Below are positions 11,797-27,876 of a stretch of 63,186 bases of DNA, in pieces. The stretch comes from a virus, in IMG/VR virus record IMGVR_UViG_3300032144_000010; one strand, given 5' to 3'. Position 1 is the stretch's first letter. Every line of letters begins with the position of its first letter. Below the pieces are notes generated by a model. The model ran no database searches, was not told the DNA's origin, and saw nothing but the letters and a program-made list of their open reading frames with translations. A program made the position numbers and the translations under genes.

Positions 11797-11906
11797 GCAT
11801 CCCCAAGCTCGGATGCGTCCGGGTTTCGGCATGCGGGTACACGTACAGGCGTAAGGCGGACCCGGCCCCCACCGGGCTAGCCCGGCAGGCACGCGAGAAC
11901 CGCTGT

Positions 11907-11917
11907 TGCGGTGTCAT
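11907..11917 (+). repeat. copy 1 of strand-specific 11-mer TGCGGTGTCAT (non-coding)
   Basis: ctgtTGCGGTGTCATcgtgcc. Confidence 0.9.
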
Positions 11918-11972
11918 CGTGCCCCATATTGGGTGTTGTATAACGAATAGATCGCGCAAAACAAGCGGTCAT

Positions 11973-12032
11973 CTGGTGTAATAACGTATGTTATTTGAAT
12001 AAGAGCTAGACTCTTATTGTCTTACACACCAG
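11973..12032 (+). other. compound inverted-repeat element (closing stem plus two AT-rich hairpins)
   Basis: ctggtgt (11973-79) pairs with acaccag (12026-32). Inner hairpins are aataac-gtat-gttatt (11980-95) and aataagag-ctaga-ctcttatt (11998-12018). Confidence 0.6.
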
Positions 12033-12062
12033 TAACCCATTGATTCCAAAGGTGGTGGGGGT

Positions 12063-12107
12063 AGAGAGAGAGAGAGAGATAATAATTAATTACTACTACT
12101 ACTACTA
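12063..12107. repeat. composite microsatellite: (AG)8, ATAATAATTAATTA, (TAC)5
   Basis: Read directly: agagagagagagagagataataattaattactactactactacta. A related block, cattattaattattact, sits at 12191-12207. Confidence 0.9.
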
Positions 12108-12250
12108 GACCCTACTATGAGAGCCGGGCTTTTGAGGCAGTTGATTCAACTACCCGCTCCCTCGCTCCCGGTGCTTCTCTCCGCAAAACGCATTATTAAT
12201 TATTACTCGGACGTAAGATCCCTTGCGGCTCTAGGCAAGAAGGCGTAATA

Positions 12251-12766
12251 ATGAGTTTCGCCAACAATCAGGCCAACACCATGATTAATTCTTATTCGGC
12301 CCTTTCGCGGGCCTTTTTCGATGAATTTCCTGCCTGCAAGCCGAACAGCATGCGCTCTTTCGTGCAGCAACAGATGGGTGGATACCCAGCTTTCGCCGAA
12401 TGGCTGGAAGCTCATGGCGTGCCCCGCGAAGATGTGCTTGGCACCAAGTTCATGCACACAGCCATGTTGCGGATGGGCACGGATGAGTACAATAGGCGCA
12501 GGCGTTTGAACAGCGCCGACGTAGCAACGCTGCACGACATCGTGCACAAGCTGCGCACCTTGGTGCCTATGGAGCGCGAGGAACCGTTGAACAGGTCCGA
12601 ACAAAGGGACGCCGCCCGCATCAGCGCGCTGCTCGCGCGCATGATCGTCAAGCGCGCGAAGCGGGACCGGCGCACGGCCAACACGAAAGCCGTGCGCGCA
12701 CAGCGCGCTTGGGTGCGCGAGCAACAACAGCACGCCGAGGACATGGCGCATGTCGATCCCGACTAG
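12251..12766 (+). CDS. hypothetical early protein (171 aa)
   Basis: First ORF after the AT-rich spacer, with gaagg upstream of the ATG. Confidence 0.6.
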   Translation: MSFANNQANTMINSYSALSRAFFDEFPACKPNSMRSFVQQQMGGYPAFAEWLEAHGVPREDVLGTKFMHTAMLRMGTDEYNRRRRLNSADVATLHDIVHKLRTLVPMEREEPLNRSEQRDAARISALLARMIVKRAKRDRRTANTKAVRAQRAWVREQQQHAEDMAHVDPD

Positions 12767-13139
12767 CACCCTTGGCAGGCACCTGTCCATCGGCAAGCTC
12801 GATGGCGCTTATCGCGCTGCCCCATTCGTCCTCGCGCAGGGCACGCAGGAAATCCTCGCGGTGCTGTGCGGCCCATTCAACCAAGACGACCCCAAGCACA
12901 TCCGCACCGTTGCCTATGAGCCCACCGAGGTCATGATCCCGGCGTTGTATTCCAGCACCCGCACCAAGACCATCGCGCAGACGCGCACGCTGCTGCACTC
13001 ACTGATACCCGCAACGATGCTGCTCTGGTCTGGTAACATGAGCCCCGCACCACAAGCACCGTTCCACATCTGGTTGTCGATGAATCCCGCTTGGCACAAG
13101 GTGGTGCCGTCCATGTACAAACGACTGGTGCAAAGGTGA
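12750..13139 (+). CDS. hypothetical early protein (129 aa), paralog of the next gene
   Basis: Shares ...YEP..V......S......T...T..L......P.AMLLW... with 13136..13543. Confidence 0.55.
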   Translation: MSIPTSTLGRHLSIGKLDGAYRAAPFVLAQGTQEILAVLCGPFNQDDPKHIRTVAYEPTEVMIPALYSSTRTKTIAQTRTLLHSLIPATMLLWSGNMSPAPQAPFHIWLSMNPAWHKVVPSMYKRLVQR

Positions 13140-13543
13140 TCCCGATAGCCCGAGCGGAATCCCCGGTATTCCGCCTGATGCATGGCGGCAATCCCATGCT
13201 GACCGTCTACACGGCCAGACGTTACCCGCTGGACTTCCCGCAGCGCATGGTGCTGACGCTCTACGAGCCGCTCGCTGTGCGCAATGGCGACGTCGTAACA
13301 TCCAGACCCATCGAGCGTACTGTCCACACGCGCTCGACGCAGGAGCTTCGCGGTGTCATCGACCAGACGGCCCCGATAGCCATGCTGCTGTGGGCGGACA
13401 CGGCCACCACGTACATGCGCGCCAGCGGCTACAAAGCCAGAATCCAAGTGATGACACGGTCCATGGACTGGTGCGTATCTCTCTGCCCGCGCAGCCTGAG
13501 ACGGCTGTTCGACGCGGAATCCGTACACTCGGCATTCAGGTAG
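13136..13543 (+). CDS. hypothetical early protein (GTG start in GTGA overlap), paralog of the previous gene
   Basis: In-frame GTG at 13136 overlaps the upstream TGA. The ORF track opens at 13091. Confidence 0.5.
   Translation: MIPIARAESPVFRLMHGGNPMLTVYTARRYPLDFPQRMVLTLYEPLAVRNGDVVTSRPIERTVHTRSTQELRGVIDQTAPIAMLLWADTATTYMRASGYKARIQVMTRSMDWCVSLCPRSLRRLFDAESVHSAFR
13350..13360 (+). repeat. near-copy of the 11-mer (cGCGGTGTCATcg)
   Basis: gcttcGCGGTGTCATCgacc. Confidence 0.8.
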
Positions 13544-13745
13544 GGAGACTACCCGCATGAACAGCTTCTTCCCGTGTGGACGACGCCAGCGCGTGCGCTA
13601 TCCAGACGCGAACTGGCGCTTTCCCACAGGACAGTGGCAGCAACGCTGGCCCGCCACGCGGTTCCGCACGCGCGGGCTGCATGCCGACACGCCCCGGCGA
13701 GCAAACCGCTTCGCCATCGCCTCTTACAACCAATCGAGGTACTGA

Positions 13746-15173
13746 ATGAACACGAACCAGACCATCGCCGACATCATCTCTGGCAACTACATCCTCGTTG
13801 ACCTGCGCATCTCGGCATGGGACGCAGCGCGCACGGACAAGGACGCGTCCGACGAGATCACGGCAACCAAGAGCGCGAAGAAAGGCAGCGCACGCGTCAT
13901 CAAGAACCTTATGGCTGGCGCGGACGACCGCTTGCGCGCTGTGCGCATGCAGGGCCGCGCGCTGCGCTCTCTGGTAGACGCCACCACGGCGACGTGGGCC
14001 GACGCGCAGCGCATCTTCCCCGCGAACAAGTACATGACGCTGGTGCCGCAGTACGAGCAGATGGTCCAGACCTTCGACAACCTCAAGGCCGAATTCTTCG
14101 CGCACTACCAGTCGGACATGCAGTTGGCGATGATGAACCTCGGCGGGCTGGCAACGCAGGACGACTACCCGGACATCAATGACCTGTGGAACAAGTTCGG
14201 CATCCAGCTGCGCTATCTCCCGGTGCCGTCTCTCGATGACTACTCGCGTATCGCTCTCCCCCCTGCCATCGCCCAAGAACTCGCAAACAGGATGGCCGAC
14301 GACCTGCAACAGAAAGCCGACGCGGCCAGTGCGCAAGCCAAGGAGACGCTCATCAAAGAGCTTGACCGCATGGCAACGCAACTCGGCAAGCTGGTAGCAG
14401 GAGAGCCGACGCGGCTCTACGACACGCTGGTGACGAACATGCGCGCTGCCGCGAGCGCCATCGAGGATACGAACTTCGCATCGGACCCGCATCTCGCGCA
14501 GCTGGCTGCGCAGATCAAGACGTCGTTGGTGCCGGACTACCGTACCAAGGACGACTTTCGCGACAGCGTACCGCTGGCCCGAGCAGCGCTCACCGAACTG
14601 GGAGCGATCAAGCAACAGCTGGTGCCGCCGCCCATCATCGCCACGGTGCCCGTTGCGGTGTCATCGCTGCCGCCTGCGGACGTGCAGGGCATAGCCATCC
14701 CGAGCGGGCAGGACCTCCGTGAGCAGATCGCGGGCACCTTTGGCGTCACGCCGGAGATTGTGCAGGAAGTGTTCGACAACACGGCGCAAGAAGAACTTGT
14801 CGTCCCTGTTCTCGACTCGCGTGGACGCACGCCCGAGCAGCGCCAAGAGGAAGCGAACTGGGCCGCCGAGCAGTCCGAGCAGGAAGCCATGGACGCCAAG
14901 GCTGCGCGCGAGGCTGCGGCTGCACTCGACGACGACTTCCTCGACGAGATCGACAAGTGGCTGGGAACGTCTCCCAGCGCGCCACCCGAGCCGCTGGTGA
15001 CTGCACAAGTCGCGGCTCCCGTACCGGTAGCCCCGGTGAAGGCCACCCCGCCGCCGGTCCCGCGCCCGGAGCCTGTGCCGGTCCAGAAAAGCGACCTGCT
15101 GGCTCAACTGGCAGCGATGGCGGACACGGATGCCCTCTCCGAGGGAACCGACCTGCTCGACGACAGCTGGTGA
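13746..15173 (+). CDS. DUF3150-like protein (475 aa)
   Basis: N-terminal ILVDLRISAWDAARTDKDAS... followed by long helices resembles DUF3150 proteins of ICEs and plasmids (memory). The C-terminal half is Pro/Ala/Glu-rich low complexity. Confidence 0.55.
   Translation: MNTNQTIADIISGNYILVDLRISAWDAARTDKDASDEITATKSAKKGSARVIKNLMAGADDRLRAVRMQGRALRSLVDATTATWADAQRIFPANKYMTLVPQYEQMVQTFDNLKAEFFAHYQSDMQLAMMNLGGLATQDDYPDINDLWNKFGIQLRYLPVPSLDDYSRIALPPAIAQELANRMADDLQQKADAASAQAKETLIKELDRMATQLGKLVAGEPTRLYDTLVTNMRAAASAIEDTNFASDPHLAQLAAQIKTSLVPDYRTKDDFRDSVPLARAALTELGAIKQQLVPPPIIATVPVAVSSLPPADVQGIAIPSGQDLREQIAGTFGVTPEIVQEVFDNTAQEELVVPVLDSRGRTPEQRQEEANWAAEQSEQEAMDAKAAREAAAALDDDFLDEIDKWLGTSPSAPPEPLVTAQVAAPVPVAPVKATPPPVPRPEPVPVQKSDLLAQLAAMADTDALSEGTDLLDDSW
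14654..14664 (+). repeat. copy of 11-mer TGCGGTGTCAT
   Basis: cccgtTGCGGTGTCATcgctgcc; read in frame as A-V-S. Confidence 0.9.
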
Positions 15174-15805
15174 TGAAAGCCTGCCGCTTGTGCCTGCGCC
15201 TGTTGCCAATCAGCGAATACTACGCTGATTACCACAGGCACGATGGGCGCATGACCGCGTGCAAGCTATGCACCAAGCTGGCGCGGCGTGAGTATGCCGC
15301 CCGTAACAAGGCGGTAATCCAGCGGCGAAACAAGCGTTACTACGAGCGCAACAAGGACAAGCTGGCCGTGTACCAGCACACTTGGCGAACACGCAACGCC
15401 GACAAGCTGAAAAAGCAACGCGAAGCCAAGCGCGCAACAGCCGAGTACAAGGCCCGGTTCAGCAGCTACGTCGCTGCGAGAAAAGCAAAACAGAAAACAG
15501 AGTGTACGCCGGAAGAGCGTGCCGCCATGCTTCGTTTGTACCGATACGCCCGCGCATTGAGTCGCGTAACAGGAACGCGCTATGTGGTAGATCACATAGT
15601 GCCTATTGCCAAGGGAGGAGTACATCACCCAAGCAACTTGAGAGTGTGCACAGCGGAAGAAAACTCAGCCAAGTACGCATCGACTGTGTGGAACGTGCGC
15701 CCATGGCTGCAACGCGAACTACGCTTGGTGTTGTCGAACACGGACCACAAGCTGGTAGCTTTCCGCGTCGAAGAAATACATCGCCTTCTATCAACCTGCA
15801 TTTGA
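15173..15805 (+). CDS. HNH endonuclease (probable free-standing/homing type)
   Basis: YVVDHIVPIAKGGVHHPSNLRVCTAEEN is an HNH motif, with an N-terminal CxxC...CxxC. TGATG overlap with the upstream stop. GC looks lower than the flanks by eye. Confidence 0.8.
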   Translation: MKACRLCLRLLPISEYYADYHRHDGRMTACKLCTKLARREYAARNKAVIQRRNKRYYERNKDKLAVYQHTWRTRNADKLKKQREAKRATAEYKARFSSYVAARKAKQKTECTPEERAAMLRLYRYARALSRVTGTRYVVDHIVPIAKGGVHHPSNLRVCTAEENSAKYASTVWNVRPWLQRELRLVLSNTDHKLVAFRVEEIHRLLSTCI

Positions 15806-15815
15806 GGAACCCAAA

Positions 15816-16922
15816 ATGAAGCTCTCGGATTTTCTTGTTTCCTCCAACGTGCGCCGCATGTACGAGTCCAAGATGGCGGTGCACATCGAAAGCGTGCCCG
15901 GCAGCGGCAAGACGAGCGTCATGCGAAAGCTGCCGGAAGTGCTGTCCAACATCTACGGCGAGCAGTTCGGCTACGTCGAAGTGTGCCTGAGCCACATGGA
16001 CACGCCCGACGTGCACGGTATCCCCATCCCGGCCAAGGACACGGACGGCGTGGTGCGCGTGAAGCTGGCGCGTGCGTACATCGCCAACCTCATCGAAGCC
16101 ACCGGCTGCAAGTTCGGCGTGCTGAACCTCGACGAGTTCGCGCAGTGCGACCCGGCGATGCAGAAGGTCAGCACCAAGATCACGCTCGACCGCATGATCG
16201 GCGACTACGCGATCCCCGAGGGCTGGATGGTGGTGATGACCAGCAACTCTACCAAGCACAGGTCCGGGGCAAACGCGTTGCTGGCGCATGCTAGAAACAG
16301 GATCATGATGTTCTCGTTCCCCGTTGACCTCGACGGGTGGCGTACCAACTTCGCGGAGCCGCGTGGCCTGCACTTCCTCTGGCCCGCGTTCACGGAGTTC
16401 TCCGCGTCCAGCTTCGCGCACGAAGTGCCGCCCCCGGACGGCGCGTTCTGCACGCTGCGCTCCTTCACGGGCCTGCACGACATCATCGTGGGGCCGGGCC
16501 AGCTGGCGGACCGCACCTGCGCGCTGAACCTCGACGACTTCGCGCTGGATGCCAGCATCGCCACCATCGGCGAGGCCGAGGCCACGAAGGCGTTCGCGTT
16601 CTTCAAGACGCACTCGGAATTGCCGAGCTTCGCCGAGATCGAAGCGAACCCGGCTGGCGCGAAGTGCCCCGGACCTGACCGTATGGACGTGGTGTATCAG
16701 GTCATGGGCCTGCTCGACCAGAAGGTCAACGGACGCAACGTGGACAAGGTGTTCCCCTACGTGCAGCGCATGCCGCGCGAGTTCCACGTCGCCATGGTGC
16801 GCAAGTTCCTGAACCGCAGCGGCGGTGGCGTCATGCTGAACGCCCCGTCGATCCGCGCCTTCCTGACCGACCCGAAGAACAAGGCGCTGGTCATGTCCGG
16901 CGTTGCAGGAGACCAGCGCTGA
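15816..16922 (+). CDS. AAA+ ATPase (MoxR/CbbQ/AAA_5-like)
   Basis: Walker A VPGSGKTSV, Walker B VLNLDEFAQ, sensor-1 VVMTSN. Confidence 0.8.
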   Translation: MKLSDFLVSSNVRRMYESKMAVHIESVPGSGKTSVMRKLPEVLSNIYGEQFGYVEVCLSHMDTPDVHGIPIPAKDTDGVVRVKLARAYIANLIEATGCKFGVLNLDEFAQCDPAMQKVSTKITLDRMIGDYAIPEGWMVVMTSNSTKHRSGANALLAHARNRIMMFSFPVDLDGWRTNFAEPRGLHFLWPAFTEFSASSFAHEVPPPDGAFCTLRSFTGLHDIIVGPGQLADRTCALNLDDFALDASIATIGEAEATKAFAFFKTHSELPSFAEIEANPAGAKCPGPDRMDVVYQVMGLLDQKVNGRNVDKVFPYVQRMPREFHVAMVRKFLNRSGGGVMLNAPSIRAFLTDPKNKALVMSGVAGDQR

Positions 16923-17188
16923 TGGACGCGGGGAGTAAGGCCGCTGCGGTGTCATCGCCGCCCGTGGAGGCGTACAAGAGCGTGGAGCGCATGGTGAAGA
17001 CCGTGCGCATCGTGGTGCGCAACGTCTACGGCCAGCTGGTGTGCTACCCGGCCTGCGAGCGCGCGGACCTGTTCGCCGAGATCGCAGGCACGCGCACGCT
17101 CTCGCACCGTACCCTCGCTCTGGCCGAGCGGCTGGGCTACACGATCCACAACGACACACCTGTCATCGACTGGAGAAAAGCACGATGA
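16922..17188 (+). CDS. hypothetical protein (88 aa) between the ATPase and VWA genes
   Basis: ORF with start and stop overlaps to both neighbours. Confidence 0.55.
   Translation: MDAGSKAAAVSSPPVEAYKSVERMVKTVRIVVRNVYGQLVCYPACERADLFAEIAGTRTLSHRTLALAERLGYTIHNDTPVIDWRKAR
16945..16955 (+). repeat. copy of 11-mer TGCGGTGTCAT
   Basis: ggccgcTGCGGTGTCATcgccgcc; in frame A-V-S. Confidence 0.9.
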
Positions 17189-18432: not shown

Positions 18433-18770
18433 ACAGGGGCAACGTGACCGGACTGTACGTCCCCACGCCGGAGGAACTCCGTGCGTGGGCCGACAACCCT
18501 GCGGCCAACGGCATCGTGCCTGTCTTCCCGGCGACGTTGCGAAACCTAGCCGAGGAGATCGAGCGGCTTCGCGCTATCTGTATGCGCGACGAACCCGCCA
18601 TGTTCAAGGCGGCACAGGAAGACGACGAGCGCATGGCTCAGCTGGAAACCGACGCGCGCGAACTCTACGAGTATGCGGAAGACGCGCTCGCCGAGGAAAC
18701 CAACAACCCGCGCGCGGACGAACTGCGCGAGCGGTACGCCACGCGCGCCGTCACGAGGAAGAAGCCATGA
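18429..18770 (+). CDS. hypothetical helical acidic protein (GTG start in GTGA overlap)
   Basis: In-frame GTG at 18429 overlaps the VWA stop. Confidence 0.5.
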   Translation: MNRGNVTGLYVPTPEELRAWADNPAANGIVPVFPATLRNLAEEIERLRAICMRDEPAMFKAAQEDDERMAQLETDARELYEYAEDALAEETNNPRADELRERYATRAVTRKKP

Positions 18771-18997
18771 GCCACCCCGACGCACTGACCAAGAGCGAGC
18801 AGGCGAACTACAACACGTTCCTGCGCGCAGCCGGCAACGGCGACCTCGCGCTCATGTCATGCCACGACAAACGCAGCGGGCTGCGCGTGCCGATCATCTG
18901 TGCGGTGTCACAGGACGCGGACGGCACCGTGACCTTCACGCCCTTGGCGCAGCTACTGGATGGCACGCAGTACGAGTGGCTGGACCCGCCGACATGA
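18767..18997 (+). CDS. hypothetical protein (76 aa)
   Basis: ATGA overlap at 18767-18770. Confidence 0.55.
   Translation: MSHPDALTKSEQANYNTFLRAAGNGDLALMSCHDKRSGLRVPIICAVSQDADGTVTFTPLAQLLDGTQYEWLDPPT
18901..18910 (+). repeat. 10/11 copy of the motif (TGCGGTGTCAc)
   Basis: atctgTGCGGTGTCAcagg; in frame A-V-S. Confidence 0.8.
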
Positions 18998-19302
18998 ACG
19001 CCAACAAGCACCAGCGCCTGTACGTCACGCAGCTGGTTAAACGAGATCGCACGGGTCACTCTGGTGGGAACGTAGTCACCAAGCTGGTGCGCGATCACAT
19101 CGTGGTGCACGGCATGTGGGGCAGGTCACCGTGGAAACAGGAGAACTACCGGGAACACCACCGGGAGTTCACCAACTTCGCCGATGCCATCCACTACCAC
19201 GATGAGCTTTCGCTGAAGATCGCGCTCATGCTGGGCACCAATCAAATGACAACGTGGAGTCACCCGAAATGTCCGCTGCCTTTTCCGTTGGCGACCAAGT
19301 GA
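18994..19302 (+). CDS. hypothetical protein (102 aa)
   Basis: ATGA overlap at 18994-18997. Confidence 0.55.
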   Translation: MNANKHQRLYVTQLVKRDRTGHSGGNVVTKLVRDHIVVHGMWGRSPWKQENYREHHREFTNFADAIHYHDELSLKIALMLGTNQMTTWSHPKCPLPFPLATK

Positions 19303-19475
19303 TCGACCGCTGGTGGACCGAGATGGGCGTGGGCACCGTGACCATGGTGACGCGCGAGTACACCACCGTGCAGTGGAACACGAAGAGCAAGACCAGCAAG
19401 TACACACCCGCTGGCCTCAACTGGCTGCAACACGCGCCCGAGGAACAAGCCGATGGTAAAGACGAACAACCGTGA
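19269..19475 (+). CDS. hypothetical protein (68 aa)
   Basis: GGAG lies 10 nt upstream of the ATG at 19269. The ORF track opens at 19254. Confidence 0.45.
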   Translation: MSAAFSVGDQVIDRWWTEMGVGTVTMVTREYTTVQWNTKSKTSKYTPAGLNWLQHAPEEQADGKDEQP

Positions 19476-19800
19476 AGCACGCCAGTGCGTGTGCTTCCAT
19501 CTGGAATTCAAGGCCAACAATATTTTCGGCGAGAACGCCCCGAGCGGCGTCTATGTCGTGTACTCGTATGGCAGGCATTGGCCGATGTTCGCGTACATCG
19601 GAGATGTCTGGTACGAGAACAGCGACCGCTTCAGCCCGACGACCAGCAAGCATCGCAGCCAAGTATGCCCGCCCGTGGACACGGTAAAGCTCCCATGCGT
19701 GGAGATGCAGATGCTCATCAAGGAAGGCCGCAACTACAAACCCAGCGCAGCGGTCATCATTGCCGCTGAATTCAACACGCCAGAAGGTGCAGTGTCATGA
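19453..19800 (+). CDS. hypothetical protein (115 aa)
   Basis: ORF with YSYGRHWPMF...W.EN.DRFSPTTSKH; no confident family assignment. Confidence 0.55.
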   Translation: MVKTNNREARQCVCFHLEFKANNIFGENAPSGVYVVYSYGRHWPMFAYIGDVWYENSDRFSPTTSKHRSQVCPPVDTVKLPCVEMQMLIKEGRNYKPSAAVIIAAEFNTPEGAVS

Positions 19801-20198
19801 GCGACAAGTCCCATGTGACCATGGAGCAGCAAGTGTGCGCCGTGTGCGGCAAGAAATTCTCGACCGGGAACATACTGCTGGACAGGAAGCTGCGCAATGC
19901 CTTCGATCAGTACACCGTCACCGGCTACGGCATGTGCGACGAACATGCGAAGCTGCGCGACGACGGCTACGTGGCGCTGATCGCCATGGACCCGGAGAAG
20001 TCCAGCACGCAGGGCGACAGTGTTCGCCTCGACGACGTGTTCCGCACGGGCACCGTCGCGCATGTGCGCAAGTCCCTGTGGGCGAAGATCATTCGTCAGC
20101 CCGAAATGACGCAGGAACAGCTGCTGGAGAAACCGTTCGTGTTCGTCACTGACGACTTCATCACGGCGCTTGCCAAGATCACCAACAGCGCCAACTAG
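19797..20198 (+). CDS. hypothetical protein with N-terminal Cys cluster (CAVCG...GMCDEH)
   Basis: ATGA overlap at 19797. Confidence 0.6.
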   Translation: MSDKSHVTMEQQVCAVCGKKFSTGNILLDRKLRNAFDQYTVTGYGMCDEHAKLRDDGYVALIAMDPEKSSTQGDSVRLDDVFRTGTVAHVRKSLWAKIIRQPEMTQEQLLEKPFVFVTDDFITALAKITNSAN

Positions 20199-20207
20199 GA
20201 GACCGCC

Positions 20208-20393
20208 GTGCTTCGCGTGCTGATTTACTTCGCTCGCCTGTTCATCATGTGGGTGGGCGTCAAGCTGATGGGACTCGACAGCCTGACGTGGTGGCAAGCC
20301 ACTGGCTGCATGCTGATGTTCATCGCCGGTACGTTCGACCGCGAACAATGGATGCGTGGGTACCGGTATGGCCTTAAAAACAACCCCCGCTGA
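20208..20393 (+). CDS. small membrane protein, two predicted TM helices (GTG start)
   Basis: VLIYFARLFIMWVGVKLMGL and WWQATGCMLMFIAGTF are hydrophobic stretches. Confidence 0.5.
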   Translation: MLRVLIYFARLFIMWVGVKLMGLDSLTWWQATGCMLMFIAGTFDREQWMRGYRYGLKNNPR

Positions 20394-20817
20394 AGTGCTG
20401 AGCGCGCCGCAGCTGTACTCGCTGAAGCGCGCCGTCTCCGAGCGCGTAGCCAAGCTGGTGCCGCCTGCTGACAGCACGATCCAGCAACGCATCCTCGTAT
20501 CGCAGCGCGCCGTTGCCATCGGCGACCTCGTTGCCAAGAGCGTCACGCACGCCACCGTGTGCGAAGAACGCGACTCCGTGCGCCTGTTGACGAACATGGA
20601 ACTGCACGTCTTCTGGGACGGCGAGCTTGAGCCGACCACTGTGCGGTACTCGTTCTCGGATGTAGTACAGAGCCGGCCGGAGCGTCGCGCGCTCCGCAAG
20701 AACGATGACTGGTGGCGTCACGCCATGAGCGTGCTGATCGCTGGCATTCCCGAGGGCACGCTGCTCGCAGCGGTCCTGAAATACACCCCCACGAACGGAG
20801 CAACCGACAATGTTTAG
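20368..20817 (+). CDS. hypothetical protein (~149 aa)
   Basis: ATG at 20368 within ORF 20356..20817. Confidence 0.55.
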   Translation: MALKTTPAEVLSAPQLYSLKRAVSERVAKLVPPADSTIQQRILVSQRAVAIGDLVAKSVTHATVCEERDSVRLLTNMELHVFWDGELEPTTVRYSFSDVVQSRPERRALRKNDDWWRHAMSVLIAGIPEGTLLAAVLKYTPTNGATDNV

Positions 20818-21379
20818 CCCACAGGGCGGACTGGCCGCCCAATGCCGCACGCACAACAAGGCCCTGCACGGTCTGCAAGGCACGTCGGAGATCACGCTGG
20901 ACCTCTCACGCTACCCGCAGGCGGTGCGCACCCGAGCGTCCAACCAGATCGACTGCCGCGTGCGTACCACGGATGCGTACTCGTCCCTGAGCGGCGGACT
21001 CATCCGCCTGATGGAGTATCTCTACGCGTTCAACCTGCCGCTCAACCTCGCGCGCGGCAACCGGCAGGTACTCGTCCCGCGCGAACACCTGCAAGAGGCG
21101 AAGGACCTCGTGCACCTGATGAACATGGAGTGCGCCGCCGTTGCCACCGTGGGCGAGGCGAAGAACTGCAACGGCGTGTGGTTCTACATGACGGGCAGCC
21201 AGTTGGGCGTTCATGATCGCCCGAGTCGCTACAACGAGAAGCTGTTCTTCTCCCGGCTTGGCCCGCTGATGCGCAAGTGCTGCGCGGACCATGTGAACGA
21301 ACGGGCGGACCAAGCCGTGGTGGCTCTTACGAAGGCCATCACGGTACAGACGACGGCCAATCTGGAATTCACGAAGTGA
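20810..21379 (+). CDS. hypothetical protein (189 aa)
   Basis: ORF in the co-directional array. Confidence 0.6.
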   Translation: MFSPQGGLAAQCRTHNKALHGLQGTSEITLDLSRYPQAVRTRASNQIDCRVRTTDAYSSLSGGLIRLMEYLYAFNLPLNLARGNRQVLVPREHLQEAKDLVHLMNMECAAVATVGEAKNCNGVWFYMTGSQLGVHDRPSRYNEKLFFSRLGPLMRKCCADHVNERADQAVVALTKAITVQTTANLEFTK

Positions 21380-22140
21380 GCAAGTGGCTCAGGTACAAAG
21401 AGGAGGAGAAAGTGAGCGGCGAAACCAACAGACTGAACGACTACCTGCGCGAGCAGATCAACCAGACGGTGAAGAACTACCTGTCGTGGCTGCGCGCCAA
21501 GATCGAGCCCATCATCGTCACGGAGGAAGACCGCGAGGACCTCATCCGCGCGGCCTACGGCGACGACGTCCGCGACTTGCAGCTTCGGCTGTACGCACTC
21601 GCGCCTGACGCCGTGGAGACCTCCTACGGCACTTCCCTGCGCTTCAGAATGGAGCGCGAGAACGAGACTGACGCCCCCATCGCCCGCACCGTCACGCTGA
21701 GCCACGGCGACCGTAGGCCGTCCTACGACCTCCCACGCAACAACCTGCTCAATCCGGCCATCTATCCGGGCATGCTGGAGTGGTTGCAGGCGTGCCACGC
21801 CATGGACGTGATGATCGCCAAGGACTGCAACTTCGTGCATACCCTGTGCGAACAGCTGGGCACCTACGGTCAGCTGCTGCGCCTGTGGCCGGACTTCATC
21901 CAGTACCTGCCCGGCAAGGAACGACTGGAAGTAGCGCGCAACCAGAAGAAGCGCAGCGCCGTGCAGGCCGAGTACGAGTTCGCCATGGGCAAGAAGCTCA
22001 CCCGCTGGGATGTTCAGGACAGGCTCCATAGGATCAACACGAGACTCGCCGAAGGCGCCTTGCTCAAGTCGGTCATCAACGAGCAGCGCGAGAAGAACCA
22101 GCAGACCGAAGAGTATCGGGCTGAGCTTTGGCCGGCATGA
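21376..22140 (+). CDS. hypothetical protein (~254 aa; GTG start in GTGA overlap)
   Basis: In-frame GTG at 21376 overlaps the upstream TGA. The ORF track opens at 21277. Confidence 0.6.
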   Translation: MSKWLRYKEEEKVSGETNRLNDYLREQINQTVKNYLSWLRAKIEPIIVTEEDREDLIRAAYGDDVRDLQLRLYALAPDAVETSYGTSLRFRMERENETDAPIARTVTLSHGDRRPSYDLPRNNLLNPAIYPGMLEWLQACHAMDVMIAKDCNFVHTLCEQLGTYGQLLRLWPDFIQYLPGKERLEVARNQKKRSAVQAEYEFAMGKKLTRWDVQDRLHRINTRLAEGALLKSVINEQREKNQQTEEYRAELWPA

Positions 22141-22526
22141 ACACCGAGGAAGCCGACCTGACGGTGCTGCTTCAGGCAGCATGGACGCGGCACATGATCG
22201 ACAAGTACCACGTCCCGCTGGCAAAAGCCCGGCTCGCTGCCGGGCACCTGACCAAGGGCATCGTGCTGCGCCGTGGCGCGAAAGTCGTTCAAGTGGACTT
22301 CGTGTTCCGTCGCCTCGACCGAGCGTACACGTTCCAGAGAGAGGTTGGTGGATGGATACACGACGACGTCATCGTGGGGCTTAACGCTGCGGTGTCATCC
22401 ATCGCCGACGACATCCTGACTGGAGCCATATTGGCCGTTGACCAAGCGCCGCCGCCCGGCGAGGACGAGGAAACGCACAGCGTCAAGTGGTATCTGGAAC
22501 AAACCGAGAAGCTGGCAGCCCTGTGA
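22137..22526 (+). CDS. hypothetical protein (~129 aa)
   Basis: ATGA overlap at 22137-22140. Confidence 0.55.
   Translation: MNTEEADLTVLLQAAWTRHMIDKYHVPLAKARLAAGHLTKGIVLRRGAKVVQVDFVFRRLDRAYTFQREVGGWIHDDVIVGLNAAVSSIADDILTGAILAVDQAPPPGEDEETHSVKWYLEQTEKLAAL
22388..22398 (+). repeat. copy of 11-mer TGCGGTGTCAT
   Basis: taacgcTGCGGTGTCATccatcg; in frame A-V-S. Confidence 0.9.
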
Positions 22527-22882
22527 CCGACTTCACCACGATGATGCGCTCGACGGCCACGGTCGTCATCAGCAAGACCCTGTCCTGTTCGCTGGACCAA
22601 GCGCACGCGCTCGCGGGCCGCATCCATCGACTGGAGTACACGCACCCGGTATTCCACGGGCCGCGCAACTTCAAATGCGCGCTGTACATCAACGACAGCA
22701 ACGACAGCAACGACAGCAACGGCAGCAGAAGCCTGTCCCTGTATGAATTCGTGCACGAACTGAAACCGGGCGAGTTCTCGGAGTATTCCGCATGTCAGAT
22801 GCCAGCGATGCGCAAGCTCGTCGTCGCGCGCTCACTCTTTCACAGTTTGGACCAAGTACGTTGGCTCAGTCTGTTTCTATGA
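22523..22882 (+). CDS. paralog-family member A (C-terminal ...SLDQVRWLSLFL)
   Basis: GTGA overlap at 22523. It carries an in-frame (NDS)n repeat and the family C-terminal motif. Confidence 0.55.
   Translation: MTDFTTMMRSTATVVISKTLSCSLDQAHALAGRIHRLEYTHPVFHGPRNFKCALYINDSNDSNDSNGSRSLSLYEFVHELKPGEFSEYSACQMPAMRKLVVARSLFHSLDQVRWLSLFL
22691..22726 (+). repeat. 9-bp tandem repeat aacgacagc x3 plus aacggcagc
   Basis: Read directly; encodes NDSNDSNDSNGS. Confidence 0.9.
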
Positions 22883-23205
22883 CCAACAAACTCTCGCAGG
22901 AACACATCACGCACATAGCTCGCGCGCAGCTGAATCAACTGTTGCTGCGCGAAGGCTACACGCTGGTGCAGCGCCAGAAGATCGGCGAAAGCATGGTCAG
23001 CGTAGTGATGGATGACAACCCGTTCGACTACTCGGCGATGGTGAAGATGGTATTCACGATTGGCGGCAAGACGCAGCGGTTCAACTACGAAGTGGGTCGT
23101 CAGTCTCCTACCGCGCTGAGTCAGCGCGAAGGCCGGGCTACTTCGCTGATTACTGAGGCACTCGAAAGCATGGACAAGCTGGTATGGCTGACAATCGCAA
23201 GCTAG
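22879..23205 (+). CDS. paralog-family member B (C-terminal ...SMDKLVWLTIAS)
   Basis: ATGA overlap at 22879. The ORF track opens at 22792. Confidence 0.55.
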   Translation: MTNKLSQEHITHIARAQLNQLLLREGYTLVQRQKIGESMVSVVMDDNPFDYSAMVKMVFTIGGKTQRFNYEVGRQSPTALSQREGRATSLITEALESMDKLVWLTIAS

Positions 23206-23501
23206 TCGAGTGTGCGCAGCGCCGCTTCGTGCGCAGGCTGGTGCGCGAGTTCGGCATGACGTACCCGGAGACGCACATCGTCAAGAACCTGACGAACGTG
23301 ATCCTTGAGCGGCACCACAACAACGGTGGGCGCGGGGCGGTTCATTTCTACGGGCGAGATGTTACGCCTTCCGTGAGCGTGCGCATGCAGCTGCAAGGCT
23401 CGGACGTGTACAGCATCCAGACGCGTGTCGTATCCAACCTCGTGAAGCGCGCCGTGGACTCGCTGGATGTTCTCCAGATCGGAATTCTGCTCAGTGAATG
23501 A
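23184..23501 (+). CDS. paralog-family member C (divergent C-terminus ...VDSLDVLQIGILLSE)
   Basis: Same size and helix/strand/helix layout as its neighbours. Confidence 0.5.
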   Translation: MADNRKLVECAQRRFVRRLVREFGMTYPETHIVKNLTNVILERHHNNGGRGAVHFYGRDVTPSVSVRMQLQGSDVYSIQTRVVSNLVKRAVDSLDVLQIGILLSE

Positions 23502-23736
23502 ATTCAAAGCCGAGCCCGGCGACATCGTGGAGAGCTTCGGTATCTATGCCGTATTCGAGGGCTACCACGAACGCGACATCGCGCACATCTACGCACGCGA
23601 CAACTTCAGAGGCGTAGTCCTGTGCGCATTGGAGACTGGCTCGCTTACTATTCCTATCTGGCGGAAGGTCCACCCCGACGAAGAAGGCAACGTGCCGCCA
23701 ATCCTAGTGATGCTGTCCAAGGCGATGAAGTCATGA
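23467..23736 (+). CDS. hypothetical protein (start 23467 ATG or 23494 GTG)
   Basis: ORF inside the paralog array, without the family motif. Confidence 0.5.
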   Translation: MFSRSEFCSVNEFKAEPGDIVESFGIYAVFEGYHERDIAHIYARDNFRGVVLCALETGSLTIPIWRKVHPDEEGNVPPILVMLSKAMKS

Positions 23737-24011
23737 GCGTGTACACCGACGAGTTCGGCGACAGCATTCGCCCCGGCATGTTGCTGCACCACATGGGCAT
23801 CTGGCTGGTCACGATCAATCGCGACCACAGCAAGGAATACGCCGACGAGAAGCGCTGGTACTGCTGCATCCACAATCACGGCAAGGGACCGGACACCTAC
23901 GTGCTGCCCGTACCGCAGGACGTGCTGCTCGACCTGATGGTGCGCTCGCGCCCGGAGGACGACAAAGCACCGCCCGCGCTGCAAATGCTGGCGACGGTGC
24001 TTCGCCGATGA
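23733..24011 (+). CDS. hypothetical protein (92 aa)
   Basis: ATGA overlap at 23733. Confidence 0.5.
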   Translation: MSVYTDEFGDSIRPGMLLHHMGIWLVTINRDHSKEYADEKRWYCCIHNHGKGPDTYVLPVPQDVLLDLMVRSRPEDDKAPPALQMLATVLRR

Positions 24012-24379
24012 CCAAGCGCACGAAGAAGCTCGCGCGCCAAGCGCGGAAGAAAGCCGTAACCGGCAAGGGCAGCCACGCGCGGGCAACCAAGACCGTCGCG
24101 CCGAACCTCACCACGGCGCGCGCACTGATCGTGGAGAAGATGCGCAACTGGTACGATCTGGAAAAGACGCTGTGCATCCGTGTCTCCAACATGCTCACCG
24201 ACGTGTCGATTGGACGCGACTGGCAGACCGGAGAGACGCAGGCCGAGTTCATGTTCGTTGGCTTCGGTGTCATCTGCGTCGTGCTGGACGGCATGCACAA
24301 CCTGTCCACGGCGCTGAGCAGCATCGACGAACTGGTGTGGGCGTTGTTGATCGCTGAAGCGAAGGCTGCGGTGTCATGA
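24008..24379 (+). CDS. paralog-family member F (…SSIDELVWALLIAEAKAAVS)
   Basis: ATGA overlap at 24008, with a basic N-terminus. Confidence 0.55.
   Translation: MTKRTKKLARQARKKAVTGKGSHARATKTVAPNLTTARALIVEKMRNWYDLEKTLCIRVSNMLTDVSIGRDWQTGETQAEFMFVGFGVICVVLDGMHNLSTALSSIDELVWALLIAEAKAAVS
24367..24377 (+). repeat. copy of 11-mer TGCGGTGTCAT spanning a stop/start junction
   Basis: gaaggcTGCGGTGTCATgagcg. Confidence 0.9.
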
Positions 24380-24702
24380 GCGAGGAAGTGAGCCAGCTGG
24401 AATACGCGCGCAGCGCGATCTTCTTCATGCTGTACTCCGAGAGACAGCTGGAGCGCAAGCAGGCGCGTCGCGCGGCTGAACGGCTATTGGGCATCGAGGC
24501 TTCGTACAACAGGCGCAGGCAGCAGTACATGGTCCGGCTGACGTTCGCGGGGCTGCCTCGTTCCATCGAGTCGTTCCACGATATGTCGAGCATGTACACC
24601 GGCTTGGACGCCAAGACCAAGGGGCTCAACGCCGAGCAGGGGATGATCTACCGTGCCATTCACCTTGTGGACCCGATGCTATGGATCGCGATAGCCGCAT
24701 AG
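24376..24702 (+). CDS. paralog-family member G (…HLVDPMLWIAIAA)
   Basis: ATGA overlap at 24376. Confidence 0.55.
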   Translation: MSEEVSQLEYARSAIFFMLYSERQLERKQARRAAERLLGIEASYNRRRQQYMVRLTFAGLPRSIESFHDMSSMYTGLDAKTKGLNAEQGMIYRAIHLVDPMLWIAIAA

Positions 24703-25025
24703 TTTTCAGCGCAAACGAAGACACAGTTCGCTCGCTGATGCGCGGCATGGACCTCCCGGACAACATCCCGAGCATGATGCGCAAGAACGCTTCGCGCTCG
24801 CTGAACAGCGTGGAGATCACGGTGCCCAACGACGGGCACTCGTTGCGCCGCGCGACGATAACGCTCATATTCAAGAACCCGGACTTCAGCGTGATCGCCC
24901 ACCACGGCGTGGCGATGAAACACGAGAACGGGCGCTGGGCCATCGTCCGTGAAGACCACGACCTCTGCCTGCGCGCCGCTGTGCGCGCCATCGACCCGCT
25001 GGTGTGGGGAATCCTCAGTGCCTGA
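24681..25025 (+). CDS. paralog-family member H (…RAIDPLVWGILSA)
   Basis: ORF with the family C-terminal motif. Confidence 0.55.
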   Translation: MDRDSRIVFSANEDTVRSLMRGMDLPDNIPSMMRKNASRSLNSVEITVPNDGHSLRRATITLIFKNPDFSVIAHHGVAMKHENGRWAIVREDHDLCLRAAVRAIDPLVWGILSA

Positions 25026-25368
25026 CCTGAAAGGAACGCGCGGAGTGAATCGCAGGGTGCTGATGCTGCTGCACGAAACCAAGAGTGTCCTCGAACTGCG
25101 CTGCTCGCTGATCCGCCCGCAGTGTTCGCGCCACACGCTGGTGGACCGGCTCGATGGCATCGAAGTCGCTGGCGACACGGGCGACTGGCTGGTGGTGCCG
25201 AAGGTCACGCTGCTGTTCGTCGATCTCGATGGGAACATCTTCCACGCGCCTGTTGTGCCGGAATACTCGCAGTGGTACTTGAAGGCGCTGCTCGGCGGGC
25301 ACGCATCCACGCCACCATGCCCGCTCGCTGAAGACCAAATACTAGGGCTGCTGCTGCACTATGGCTAA
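25018..25368 (+). CDS. hypothetical protein (GTG start; uncertain)
   Basis: In-frame GTG at 25018 just before the upstream stop. The ORF track opens at 24949. Confidence 0.45.
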   Translation: MPDLKGTRGVNRRVLMLLHETKSVLELRCSLIRPQCSRHTLVDRLDGIEVAGDTGDWLVVPKVTLLFVDLDGNIFHAPVVPEYSQWYLKALLGGHASTPPCPLAEDQILGLLLHYG

Positions 25369-25681
25369 CGATGAGCGCGACGACACGCTGAAGCAACAGC
25401 ACATTCGCGCAGCGTTCGAGTCGCAGCTGTTTCGCCATCGCCGCGACACGCTGGCGACAAGCAACGTGTGGGAACCGACCTACCGCGTGGCGATGGTCTA
25501 CAAGTACCCGGTGACGGGGCCGGAGGGCAACGGCGTCTGGCTGCTGTTCGACCACGGCTACAAAGCTCCTACCACGGAGAAGTTCGCAAGATGGTTCAAC
25601 GAGCGCGGCGACGTCCTGCCGCCCCCGCCGCTCGATGACCCGACGATCAGTGCGCTACTACTCAAATTTGGTGTACGCTAA
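25361..25681 (+). CDS. hypothetical protein (106 aa)
   Basis: ORF in the co-directional array. Confidence 0.55.
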   Translation: MANDERDDTLKQQHIRAAFESQLFRHRRDTLATSNVWEPTYRVAMVYKYPVTGPEGNGVWLLFDHGYKAPTTEKFARWFNERGDVLPPPPLDDPTISALLLKFGVR

Positions 25682-25685
25682 GAGC

Positions 25686-25889
25686 ATGTTCACCTACGAA
25701 GCCTCTCCGAACAGCGCCGTGACCCGAGATGCTATGGCTAGCTTCTGGCTCCAGCGCTACTGCGCGCGCGTGGACGTGGCCCGTTCGATCATGCACAATT
25801 CTGGCGTACCGTTCCCGGCCGCCATGGAAGCCGCCGAGGGCGTGATGAACCAGCAGTTCAACCAGTGGCTGTCGCAGGGCAAGCTGTGA
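25686..25889 (+). CDS. hypothetical protein (67 aa)
   Basis: ATG at 25686, 5 nt after the upstream stop. Confidence 0.5.
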   Translation: MFTYEASPNSAVTRDAMASFWLQRYCARVDVARSIMHNSGVPFPAAMEAAEGVMNQQFNQWLSQGKL

Positions 25890-27736
25890 AGACGATCACC
25901 GTCGATTTCGAGAGCTTCTGGTCGCAGGACTACACGCTGTCCAAGATGACGACGCAGGAGTACGTGCGCGACCCGCGCTTCCAGCTGATCGGCATGGGCT
26001 TCGCTGTTGGCAACGACCGCCCGCGCTACGTGAGCGGCCCCACCGACGTGATGCTGGCTGCGGCCGCGCTGCCATGGAGCGAGTCCGTCGTGATCGCGCA
26101 CAACGCGCAGTTCGATGGCGCGATACTCGAATGGCTGATCGGCTTCCACGCGCGCACCTACTTCTGCACGATGCAGGCAGCGAACGCGTGCGTAAAGCCA
26201 TGGACAGGTTCAGCATCGTTGGCCTCGTGCGCAACGTACTTCAACCTGCCAGAGAAGATGACCGGCATCCTGCAAGCCACGCGCGGGCTGCGCCACGAGC
26301 AGCTGACGCTGGAGCAACGGCGCGCGATGGCGGAATACTGCAAGCACGACGTGATGATTACGCGCGAATTGTTCCAGCGCATGCGCGACAAATTCAACGA
26401 AGACGAGACAGACCTGATCGACCTCACGATCAAGAAATACGTCCGGCCTAAAATCGTCCTGTCGCGCAAGCGCATCAAGGAAGCGCAATACGAACTGGAA
26501 CAGCGGCGCACCGCCCTGCTGACACAGCTGGGCGACGAGAAGTGGGCCAGCGCGACGATCTCCAGCAACGAGAAATTCGCCGAAGCGCTGCGTGCGCTCG
26601 GCGTCGAGCCGCCGATGAAAGTCAGCGGACGCACAGGCCAACAAACGTATGCGTTCGCCAAGACCGATCCTGATTTTCTTGAGCTACAGGAACACGATGA
26701 TCCCGACGTGCAGACGCTGGTGAACGTGCGCATCGGCGCGAAGTCCACGCTGGAGGAATCGCGACTGGAGAAGTTCCTGCGCATCGCCGACATCGACCCG
26801 GACCAGAAGCTCGCCGTGCCGCTCACCTACTACGGCGCGGGCACCGGGCGCATGAGCGCGCGCGACGGAATCAACCTACAGAACCTCACGAAGAAGTCGC
26901 CGATACGCGACTGCCTCACCGCGCCGCCCGGCTACAAGGTCGTGACGGCTGACCTCTCGCAGATCGAAGCACGCGTGCTGGCATGCATTGCGGGGCAGGA
27001 CGACCTTCTCGAAGAATTCGCTACTGGGGCCGACCCCTACTCGTCCTTTGCTACGGACCTGTACGGTGTGCCCGTCTCCAAGGAGGAGAACACGGACCTG
27101 CGTGACGTGGGCAAAGCAGCGATTCTCCAGCTTGGCTTCTACGCAGGCGTGAGCGGCTTCGACCGCTACTTGAAGACCAAAGCCAACAACCCGCAGCCGC
27201 TCGATGAAGTGGAGCGCATCGTCAACGCCTACCGTCGCCGGTACGGCCACATAGCCAAGCTGTGGAAGTGGATGGAGAAAACCGCCACGCCGGTCATCCT
27301 CGGCACGAACGGCGGCGCTACATGCGCGATTGCCAACTGCGTCTATTCCACCCATCAGCTGACGCTGCCTAACGGCATGCCGATCTACTATCCGCACGCG
27401 CGCCGGCAGCTGAACGGCGACGTGATCTACGACTCGTTCCGTGGCAAGAGCGGAGCCGTCAAGGAGGTAAAGCTATGGCCGGGCCTGCTGACCGAGAACA
27501 TCGTGCAAGCGCTGGCGAGGATCATCCTCTCGACCGCCGAAGTGAGTCTGGCACGCGCCGGGCTGCTCGCGGCCTTGCAGGTACACGACGAACTGGTATT
27601 CATCGTGAAGGAAGCGGCGGTGCGTGCGGTGTCATTGGCGCTGCGCCGGGCGATGACCCAGCGTGTTTCATGGATGCCGAATCTTCCCTTGGCATGCGAC
27701 ATCAAGGTAGGGAACACCTACAAGGAGGCAAAGTGA
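25886..27736 (+). CDS. family A DNA polymerase with 3'-5' exonuclease domain
   Basis: Exo motifs DFESFW, AHNAQFDGAIL and YCKHDVMITRELF. Pol motif A VVTADLSQIEARVLA, motif B RDVGKAAILQLGFYAG, motif C LQVHDELVF. GTGA overlap at 25886. Confidence 0.92.
   Translation: MKTITVDFESFWSQDYTLSKMTTQEYVRDPRFQLIGMGFAVGNDRPRYVSGPTDVMLAAAALPWSESVVIAHNAQFDGAILEWLIGFHARTYFCTMQAANACVKPWTGSASLASCATYFNLPEKMTGILQATRGLRHEQLTLEQRRAMAEYCKHDVMITRELFQRMRDKFNEDETDLIDLTIKKYVRPKIVLSRKRIKEAQYELEQRRTALLTQLGDEKWASATISSNEKFAEALRALGVEPPMKVSGRTGQQTYAFAKTDPDFLELQEHDDPDVQTLVNVRIGAKSTLEESRLEKFLRIADIDPDQKLAVPLTYYGAGTGRMSARDGINLQNLTKKSPIRDCLTAPPGYKVVTADLSQIEARVLACIAGQDDLLEEFATGADPYSSFATDLYGVPVSKEENTDLRDVGKAAILQLGFYAGVSGFDRYLKTKANNPQPLDEVERIVNAYRRRYGHIAKLWKWMEKTATPVILGTNGGATCAIANCVYSTHQLTLPNGMPIYYPHARRQLNGDVIYDSFRGKSGAVKEVKLWPGLLTENIVQALARIILSTAEVSLARAGLLAALQVHDELVFIVKEAAVRAVSLALRRAMTQRVSWMPNLPLACDIKVGNTYKEAK
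27625..27635 (+). repeat. copy of 11-mer TGCGGTGTCAT
   Basis: ggtgcgTGCGGTGTCATtggcg; in frame A-V-S. Confidence 0.9.
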
Positions 27737-27876
27737 AACTGGAGAGCGTTGATCCCGGCGGACGGCAAGTGCCGCTGTTCCGTGGGATGGATTGGTTCCT
27801 GCTCGGGTTTGCCACGGGCATGCTGGTGACGGGGACGGTAGTCGGCATCTGGCTGACGCTCGGCGCGCCTGCATGA
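27733..27876 (+). CDS. small single-pass membrane protein (47 aa, GTG start)
   Basis: AAGGAGG lies 5 nt upstream, with a GTGA overlap with polA. TM segment WFLLGFATGMLVTGTVVGIWLTL. Confidence 0.5.
   Translation: MKLESVDPGGRQVPLFRGMDWFLLGFATGMLVTGTVVGIWLTLGAPA

Follow-up and report, generated by a model that had tools for sequence, protein, structure and literature searches.

The virus record IMGVR_UViG_3300032144_000010 comprises 63,186 nucleotides, analysed here at full length (the window), and its plus strand carries an 11-nucleotide word, TGCGGTGTCAT, that recurs through one half of the genome and is the subject of this work. The window opens and closes with an exact 128-bp terminal direct repeat (bases 1-128 = 63059-63186), the contig being a circularly closed assembly of about 63,058 bp, and has a guanine-plus-cytosine (GC) content of 64%. 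Its genes are laid out in two opposed arms. The minus-strand (late) arm runs from 38.4 kb through the contig junction to about 10.2 kb and codes for the portal, the large terminase, internal virion and tail proteins and a DarB/LPD39-like polyvalent protein of 2681 amino acids. The plus-strand (early, replication) arm extends from about 10.5 to 38.4 kb and codes for an ATPase, a DUF2201 metallopeptidase/VWA protein, a family A DNA polymerase, a PD-(D/E)XK nuclease of the RecB family, an SNF2 helicase and a DUF927 primase-helicase. Searches of the window for an RNA polymerase, a tRNA or an Rfam family were negative. Because two plus-strand open reading frames (ORFs) precede the first copy of the word (Table 1), the arms probably diverge near 10.2-10.5 kb rather than at 11.9 kb, where the stretch described in an earlier note on this DNA begins.

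No close DNA relative was found among GenBank phages or in IMG/VR. The nearest cultured phages, which have the same two-arm layout, are Rhizobium phage RHph_TM3_14A (MN988472) and the Pseudomonas phages KPP25, phiR18 and Rollin; amino-acid identity between RHph_TM3_14A and the window is 34-39% in the polymerase and the terminase and 59% in the capsid protein.

Among the 10-mers and 11-mers of the genome, TGCGGTGTCAT ranks first in frequency. Six exact copies are present, all on the plus strand, against an average of 0.01 in dinucleotide shuffles; the word is thus enriched several-hundred-fold and in a strand-specific manner. When one mismatch is allowed, the count rises to 12 against 1.6 expected from the same shuffles, and 11 of the 12 lie on the plus strand (five of the six one-mismatch copies are on plus and one on minus). 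Two-mismatch copies have no strand bias (two on plus, four on minus), which indicates that the motif family is tight and sharply bounded. Ten of the 12 copies fall within 11.9-27.6 kb, in the replication arm and on the strand that codes for its genes, successive copies being 0.1-3.3 kb apart, and the last 10 kb of the plus arm holds none. The flanks are not conserved, apart from a weaker preference for C and then G directly after TGCGGTGTCAT.

These counts agree with the earlier note in the six exact copies, their positions and strand and their large excess over chance, and the pattern search that it proposed, at one and two mismatches on both strands, gave the polarity just described. All four of its near-copies are real, those at 18901 and 43471 at the positions it gave and the other two at 13349 (not 13350) and 24263 (not 24265); the plus-strand copy TGCAGTGTCAT at 19788 and the minus-strand copy TGCGGTGTCAC at 50518-50528 had escaped it. 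Its statement that there is no reverse-complement copy holds for exact copies and fails at one mismatch (50518-50528), and the spacing of about 2-3.5 kb that it reported is broader in reality. It had also held that the copies do not track gene starts, which is correct for most of them, being gene-internal or, at 11907, intergenic, but not for those at 19788 and 24367, which sit on TCATGA stop/start junctions, or for the one at 16945, which lies 23 nt past a gene junction.

Within genes, selection can be read at the level of nucleotides. The codons GCG-GTG-TCA (GCGGTGTCA), preceded by T, spell 6 of the 11 Ala-Val-Ser tripeptides in the proteins of the plus arm, whereas the codon usage of that arm predicts this spelling for 1.4% of them (0.014 per tripeptide). 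In 3000 within-gene shuffles of synonymous codons, the exact count averaged 1.017 including the fixed intergenic copy, that is, 0.017 coding copies against the 5 observed, and copies with at most one mismatch averaged 1.4 (maximum 5, fixed intergenic copy included) against 10 observed. Seven of the nine coding copies, namely the five exact ones and those at 18901 and 19788, are read in the (Ala)-Val-Ser frame, the two at 13349 and 24263 in another. This frame is preferred because the other two would force Cys-Gly-Val or Arg-Cys-His into the protein, and Ala-Val-Ser is the least costly frame for the motif. It is therefore strongly supported that selection acts on the DNA word rather than on the protein, inside genes that are unrelated to one another. 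The earlier note had already suggested selection on DNA or RNA accommodated in one tolerable frame, mostly that of Ala-Val-Ser; the codon-preserving null model that it named does not reproduce the counts, and the orthologous positions that it proposed to compare in relatives speak for the same conclusion.

A search of 5.8 billion proteins returned the nearest polymerases, 52% identical, on two short contigs with GC contents of 54% (L021) and 57% (L022). In both, the 11-mer stands unaltered 111 nt ahead of the stop codon of the polymerase gene, the same offset as that of copy 27625 in the window. The site reads cgT-GCG-GTG-TCA-Ttg in the window, gaT-GCG-GTG-TCA-Tca in L021 and agT-GCG-GTG-TCA-Tcg in L022, so that the flanking residues differ (Arg, Asp or Ser before; Leu, Ser or Ser after) while the flanking T's are kept. 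Of all stretches of the gene that are identical in the three sequences, this 11-nt run ranks among the three longest; third codon positions are otherwise 25% (0.25) identical, and five more distant polymerases have unrelated residues at the site (RVV, KFV, TFV, ITK, WFT). By sequence comparison, then, the motif is conserved, at one site in exact position, down to a polymerase identity of 52%.

Other contigs preserve the word elsewhere in the arm. A 13.3-kb contig (L108), collinear with 5.4-18.7 kb of the window, contains the 9-mer core GCGGTGTCA six times on plus and never on minus, against 0.07 expected; all six copies are in its early part, and GCGGTGTCA is the top k-mer of the contig. Two exact 11-mers of L108 lie in the intergenic region orthologous to that of copy 11907, where the copy of the window is the core of a 30-nt block (about 11905-11934, TTGCGGTGTCATCGYGCCCCATRTTGGGT) that is the best conserved stretch of the region and is duplicated in L108. 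The same contig has TGCGGTGTCAC in a homologous gene at roughly the place orthologous to copy 14654. A further contig of 1.45 kb (L020, 1454 bp), whose DUF2201 protein is 79% identical to that of the window, has one exact copy read as Ala-Val-Ser. Copy 18901 has no conserved counterpart in L020 at the orthologous place, which shows that motif sites turn over. As a separate observation, L020 ends 9 nt past its motif copy (1435-1454), which could be coincidence or a coverage break at a nick during library preparation.

Table 1. Copies of TGCGGTGTCAT and neighbouring features of the window
Feature	Position	Strand	Remarks
ORF	10534-11058	+	high third-position GC; before motif copy 11907
ORF	11082-11765	+	high third-position GC; phrog_1448 match; homologs in L108; 18-nt tandem repeat at 11613, 11631 and 11649
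Non-coding region	11766-12250		three hairpins, e.g. GGGGGAC-GCAA-GTCCCCC at 11781-11798, followed by an AT-rich stretch with low-complexity runs (GA)n, TAATAATTAATTA and (CTA)n, about 12060-12106
Exact copy	11907-11917	+	intergenic; between the hairpin-rich stretch after ORF 11082-11765 and the AT-rich non-coding region
One-mismatch copy CGCGGTGTCAT	13349-13359	+	in ORF 13091-13543; read CGC-GGT-GTC, outside the Ala-Val-Ser frame
Exact copy	14654-14664	+	in the 475-amino-acid ORF 13746-15173; Ala-Val-Ser frame
HNH ORF	15173-15805	+	between the 475-amino-acid gene and the ATPase gene
Exact copy	16945-16955	+	23 nt past the ATPase stop (16922); codons 9-11 of ORF 16922-17188; Ala-Val-Ser
One-mismatch copy TGCGGTGTCAC	18901-18911	+	in ORF 18485-18997; Ala-Val-Ser frame
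One-mismatch copy TGCAGTGTCAT	19788-19798	+	overlaps the TGA of ORF 19453-19800 and the ATG (19797) of the next ORF
Exact copy	22388-22398	+	in ORF 22128-22526; Ala-Val-Ser frame
9-nt tandem repeat CAACGACAGCA	22690, 22699, 22708	+	region of ORF 22487-22882
One-mismatch copy TTCGGTGTCAT	24263-24273	+	in ORF 24008-24379; read TTC-GGT-GTC
Exact copy	24367-24377	+	Ala-Val-Ser-stop; overlaps the TGA of ORF 24008-24379 and the ATG (24376) of ORF 24376-24702
Family A DNA polymerase gene	25865-27736	+
Exact copy	27625-27635	+	in the polymerase gene, 111 nt before its stop
IS110-family transposase-like gene, then phrog_5931 protein	28547-30384	+	Pfam Transposase_20 and phrog_4285 matches; counterpart in no related locus
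One-mismatch copy TGCGGTGTCAC	43471-43481	+	late arm, antisense to the 2681-amino-acid gene; membership uncertain, may be a chance match
One-mismatch copy TGCGGTGTCAC	50518-50528	-	sole minus-strand one-mismatch copy; read Leu-Arg-Cys-His; probably a chance match

The surroundings of the first copy deserve some attention. L108 keeps several short blocks of the non-coding region 11766-12250 (CATTGATTYCAARGG, ATCCCTTGC), a region which may be an early control region or a genome end. At the other end of the motif-bearing stretch, just past the last early-arm copy, the transposase-like gene and its phrog_5931 neighbour may constitute an insertion element in the replication arm. Among a set of 40 small ORFs, Pfam returned a Tad2-like (Thoeris anti-defence 2) domain at 2e-14, DUF6117 at 1e-14 and a CopG-type ribbon-helix-helix at 5e-06.

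An unbiased k-mer screen was then applied to members of the wider family, with Pseudomonas phage tf, in which nicks have been mapped, as a positive control. For tf, the word that the screen ranked first was TACTGTGAC, the proven nick motif, in 11 exact copies, and with at most one mismatch in 17 copies on one strand and 0 on the other. For RHph_TM3_14A it yielded YGCGCACTCAY, present nine times on plus and never on minus, which aligns with the word of the window as YGCG-NNN-TCAY. Seven of these copies are in the early arm (19467-34853); the remaining two, against about 0.07 expected, are in the late arm (47853, 59232), where they run antisense to the genes. Two of the nine stand 14-18 nt before start codons. 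The corresponding 9-mer GCGCACTCA has 0 copies on both strands of 100 kb of Rhizobium etli p42f, and the word of RHph_TM3_14A is therefore neither a host repeat nor a Chi site. A third word, TACGGTGAG, occurs in L011, whose polymerase is 45% identical, in four exact and five one-mismatch copies, all on plus with 0 on minus; taken alone, it is only suggestive. For the three words TGCGGTGTCAT, YGCGCACTCAY and TACGGTGAG, the literature gave only unrelated primer matches.

Neither GCGNNNTCA nor a TACGGTG core proved to be general across the wider family, TACGGTG elsewhere representing Tyr-Gly codons, and the top word of phage Rollin, ACCGGAGAGA, was set aside as ribosome-binding-site context. Three other repeated words were noted on the way. 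In a distant family member (L019, Rhodospirillales metagenome-assembled contig JBBILI010000012.1, locus 194-21569), the different strand-specific word ATTCAACCC is present in 11 exact copies on the gene strand and 0 on the other, with 0.10 expected; it lies mostly within the first 5-12 codons, is read Ile-Gln-Pro and is often followed by a GCGCCGGGTGAGCCGGC hairpin. In IMGVR_UViG_3300044618_000246 (L028, locus 339-9034), the near-palindrome CTAACAAATGTTAG stands about 10-14 times on the gene strand directly before ribosome-binding sites and looks like an operator or RNA hairpin before early genes. In bases 1-50000 of RHph_TM3_14A, AGGTAAC/GTTACCT is found 24 times per strand against about 3-4 expected, and about once per 50 kb in host DNA; AGGTAAC, often extended to GAGGTAAC, is probably a conserved ribosome-binding-site context. 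That this family of podophages of about 60 kb, mostly uncultured, possesses a strand-marking system whose word changes between lineages (TGCGGTGTCAT, YGCGCACTCAY, TACGGTGAG) is a tentative proposal, which we favour less than its negation.

In the window and its relatives, TGCGGTGTCAT behaves as a recognition site does, in its enrichment, polarity, nucleotide-level purifying selection, conservation and lineage-specific change. Judged from these sequence comparisons, it is very probably a selected, strand-specific site that a protein recognises at the level of DNA. What that protein does is a separate matter, for which the closest precedents are found in phages whose linear DNA carries localized single-strand nicks. 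Such nicks have been known since the 1960s in T5 and later in phiKMV-like and tf/LUZ24-like phages, and their function, and for most of them the enzyme, is not known (PMC3517423, PMC11780129).

Phage tf has 14 mapped nicks at TACT/RTGMC, all on the top strand (PMC3517423). By its GenBank features, 12 of these lie in the left arm on the coding strand and two are antisense in the late arm, three nick sites fall exactly on start codons, and one-mismatch variants occur on the same strand only. In phage Rembedalsseter, 13 nicks at WACTRTGAC were confirmed by nanopore data, and in 61 phages this motif, the function of which is not known, is enriched on a single strand, for the most part the coding one, and frequently stands where a gene begins (PMC11780129). 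Several features are common to the window and to tf, Rembedalsseter and about 60 phages of the LUZ24-like (Bruynoghevirus-type) kind. In these phages a short word of 9-11 nt is restricted to a single strand and is present in 9-14 copies; most of the copies follow the coding strand in the early arm of a podophage with two arms, a few lie antisense in the late arm, and several fall on start codons or at gene junctions. Variants with one mismatch keep to that strand, the motif and some of its positions are conserved across relatives with little DNA similarity, and there is a GTG core (T.C.GTG.C, common to TGCGGTGTC). The window differs from tf in the longer conserved core of 11 nt, in the genome size of about 63 kb against about 46 kb, and in its last early-arm copy lying about 10 kb short of the arm's end; moreover, nicks have been experimentally shown in tf, whereas the motif of the window is known from sequence alone.

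The other two nick systems are less similar. Nicks of phiKMV-like phages occur at CGACNNNNNCCTA/CTCCGG and the major nicks of T5 at R/GCGCRGG (PMC3517423). Both have localized, sequence-associated interruptions, of no known function, in one strand of a linear phage genome, as is proposed for the window, but in phiKMV about 4 nicks fall on the non-coding strand, at a consensus that is long and bipartite, the T5 consensus is short and degenerate and is found on the un-nicked strand too, and neither motif resembles TGCGGTGTCAT. Of the traits of nick motifs in general, frequency far above chance, restriction to one strand, concentration in one genome half and conservation in relatives beyond general sequence similarity are found in the window, to which a ligatable single-strand break at a fixed point of the motif in virion DNA would have to be added; the uneven distribution over one half is seen in RHph_TM3_14A and tf as well.

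By analogy with these systems, we assign a probability of roughly one half to the reading that TGCGGTGTCAT is a new nick-associated motif family and the recognition site of a phage-encoded nickase. A sequence- and strand-specific endonuclease encoded by the phage would recognise TGCGGTGTCAT on the plus strand and nick that strand late in infection or during packaging, and the packaged virion DNA would carry about 6-11 single-strand interruptions in its early half; the cutting itself, its position, the enzyme and the timing are all borrowed from the analogy. Of the five roles that the earlier note had listed, a strand-specific nick site is the best fit, its anatomy matching that of the experimentally mapped nick motifs of tf and Rembedalsseter in each point. 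A methylation site, also on that list, would leave the enrichment on one strand unexplained.

Several observations weigh against nicking. The motif differs from every published nick consensus; the agreement between TGCGGTGTC and TACTGTGAC of tf at 6 of 9 positions was judged not significant once registers are allowed; and BLASTP of all ORFs of the window against the ORFs of tf gave only two spurious short matches. Many family members (KPP25, L016-L018 and most IMG/VR loci) have no comparable word. In the window, every well-supported copy points in the direction of transcription, and for this reason a signal on the DNA strand is inseparable there from a signal for transcription; the argument for the former rests on the two late-arm copies of RHph_TM3_14A. 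The intergenic copy, in its conserved and, in L108, duplicated 30-nt block upstream of the next long ORFs, would fit a regulatory site too. Finally, no nickase candidate was found in the window, where the one HNH gene is sporadic. As regards kinship with tf, none of 98 relative loci scanned has more than one copy of TACTGTGAC or TACTATGAC, and by these comparisons the motif is not the WACTRTGAC/TACTRTGMC system and the phage stands outside the LUZ24-like/tf gene-content cluster.

The HNH gene was considered as the nickase of the clade and rejected, since L108, although it retains the motif, lacks a homolog of this gene, as does every other relative; for the same reason, the suggestion of the earlier note that the motif is an HNH target is unlikely. 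It codes for a free-standing HNH protein with an N-terminal Cys-pair motif, the signature DHIVPIAKGG...N...N and weak Pfam HNH matches, resembles the sporadic free-standing HNH genes of many phages and is probably a mobile insertion. The IS110-like protein (28547-29563) was likewise rejected as reader of the motif, its gene being unique to the window. A presence/absence matrix built to find a gene that tracks the motif shows only the shared replication core, most loci consisting of the polymerase with 10 kb on either side.

The main alternative is a role in transcription: the motif would be a promoter specific to the phage or a site bound by one of its transcription regulators, and the gene-internal copies would be internal promoters of a tightly packed operon. 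Single-element promoters of this type are known in T4, where late promoters have TATAAATA and middle promoters a MotA box, and one variant would have the host RNA polymerase act with a phage specificity factor at a single element, as at the late or the MotA-dependent middle promoters of T4. Like those promoters, TGCGGTGTCAT is a short strand-specific word that is co-oriented with genes and, in a compact genome, often lies inside the upstream gene. All ten early-arm copies point in the direction of the genes, copy 11907 lies in the conserved intergenic block described above, the polymerase copy stands at a fixed 108 nt upstream of the next gene in L021 and L022, and two copies of RHph_TM3_14A closely precede start codons. 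In addition, no consensus sigma-70-like promoter was found in 11.5-29 kb, whether at the copies or elsewhere, so that other signals must exist there.

This account meets difficulties of its own. T4 promoters depend on a dedicated factor (gp55, or MotA with AsiA) and keep a fixed relation to transcription starts, whereas no such factor was found in the window and the positions of its copies relative to genes are irregular: the distance to the next gene start ranges from 9 to more than 1000 nt, most copies are gene-internal, and two overlap the start codon itself. Pfam and PHROGs revealed no phage RNA polymerase or sigma factor on the ORFs scanned, among which many small ones are unannotated. 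Promoters of a phage RNA polymerase in particular were set aside: no RNA polymerase domain was detected on the ORFs scanned, the large virion proteins of the window have no DxDGD motif, and the 2681-amino-acid protein is DarB/LPD39-like. Aligned flanks have neither a second conserved element nor a -10-like box at a fixed distance. The two late-arm copies of RHph_TM3_14A lie on plus inside antisense genes, and the same partial association with gene starts is seen at proven nick motifs. A promoter or a regulator-binding site, the latter among the roles that the earlier note had proposed, is still a live rival, but we regard a transcriptional role as rather unlikely, clearly behind nicking.

Less likely again is a strand-polar signal for replication or recombination that is read on single-stranded DNA, for instance a priming site for the DUF927-type primase-helicase or a Chi-like attenuator for the phage RecB-family nuclease with the SNF2 helicase, or for a host exonuclease. 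The phage codes for all three of these proteins, the polarity of the word is strict and, in RHph_TM3_14A, independent of gene orientation, and a spacing of 1-3 kb resembles that of Okazaki fragments. The motif also contains GTGTC, a recognition sequence of the T7 primase, which serves as a lead only; the variant of RHph_TM3_14A has no GTC. Eleven specified bases far exceed known primase (3-5 nt) or Chi (5-8 nt) sites, the copies are gathered within about 16 kb of a 63-kb genome with none in the last 10 kb of the arm, and a host Chi is countered by the absence of the RHph_TM3_14A word from 100 kb of host DNA.

Very improbable, in our estimation, is an RNA-level signal in early transcripts, whether for processing, antitermination or translation. 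The motif does lie on the sense strand of early genes, with some copies at gene junctions, but 80-nt windows around the copies have minimum free energies within background and pair the motif inconsistently, neither a shared nor an unusually stable structure is seen, and nothing in the window matches Rfam. Copy 11907, between hairpins and the AT-rich region, may be little transcribed if the putative early promoters are located there, and in the late arm of RHph_TM3_14A the copies would be antisense; the RNA signal listed in the earlier note is accordingly disfavoured. Chance, a coding artefact (a shared peptide) or a generic host repeat, for which it can be said only that most copies encode Ala-Val-Ser, is effectively refuted by both kinds of shuffle, by the unrelatedness of the proteins and the flanking half-codons kept where flanking amino acids differ, and by the same word emerging independently as the top k-mer of L108.

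The window thus represents an undescribed phage lineage with a strand-specific DNA word that is under long-term nucleotide-level selection and is not an artefact. By analogy, the word is most plausibly a new member of the nick-associated class, with a promoter or regulator site as the principal competitor. Its interest lies in the same anatomy as that of nick motifs being found in an unrelated phage lineage, on evidence that is unusually clean: selection on nucleotides inside genes, and a polymerase site kept across 48% protein divergence. Sister lineages have altered words, and one of them is the cultured phage RHph_TM3_14A on Rhizobium etli, which makes the question testable. If the nick reading is false, the motif would represent a strand-specific signal of a new kind in the early regions of phages. 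If the copies are nick sites, localized nicking would be far more widespread and evolvable than the three known groups suggest, the lineage-specific switches of the word would allow the nickase to be identified by covariation, and the 50-year-old question of what phage nicks are for would be opened.

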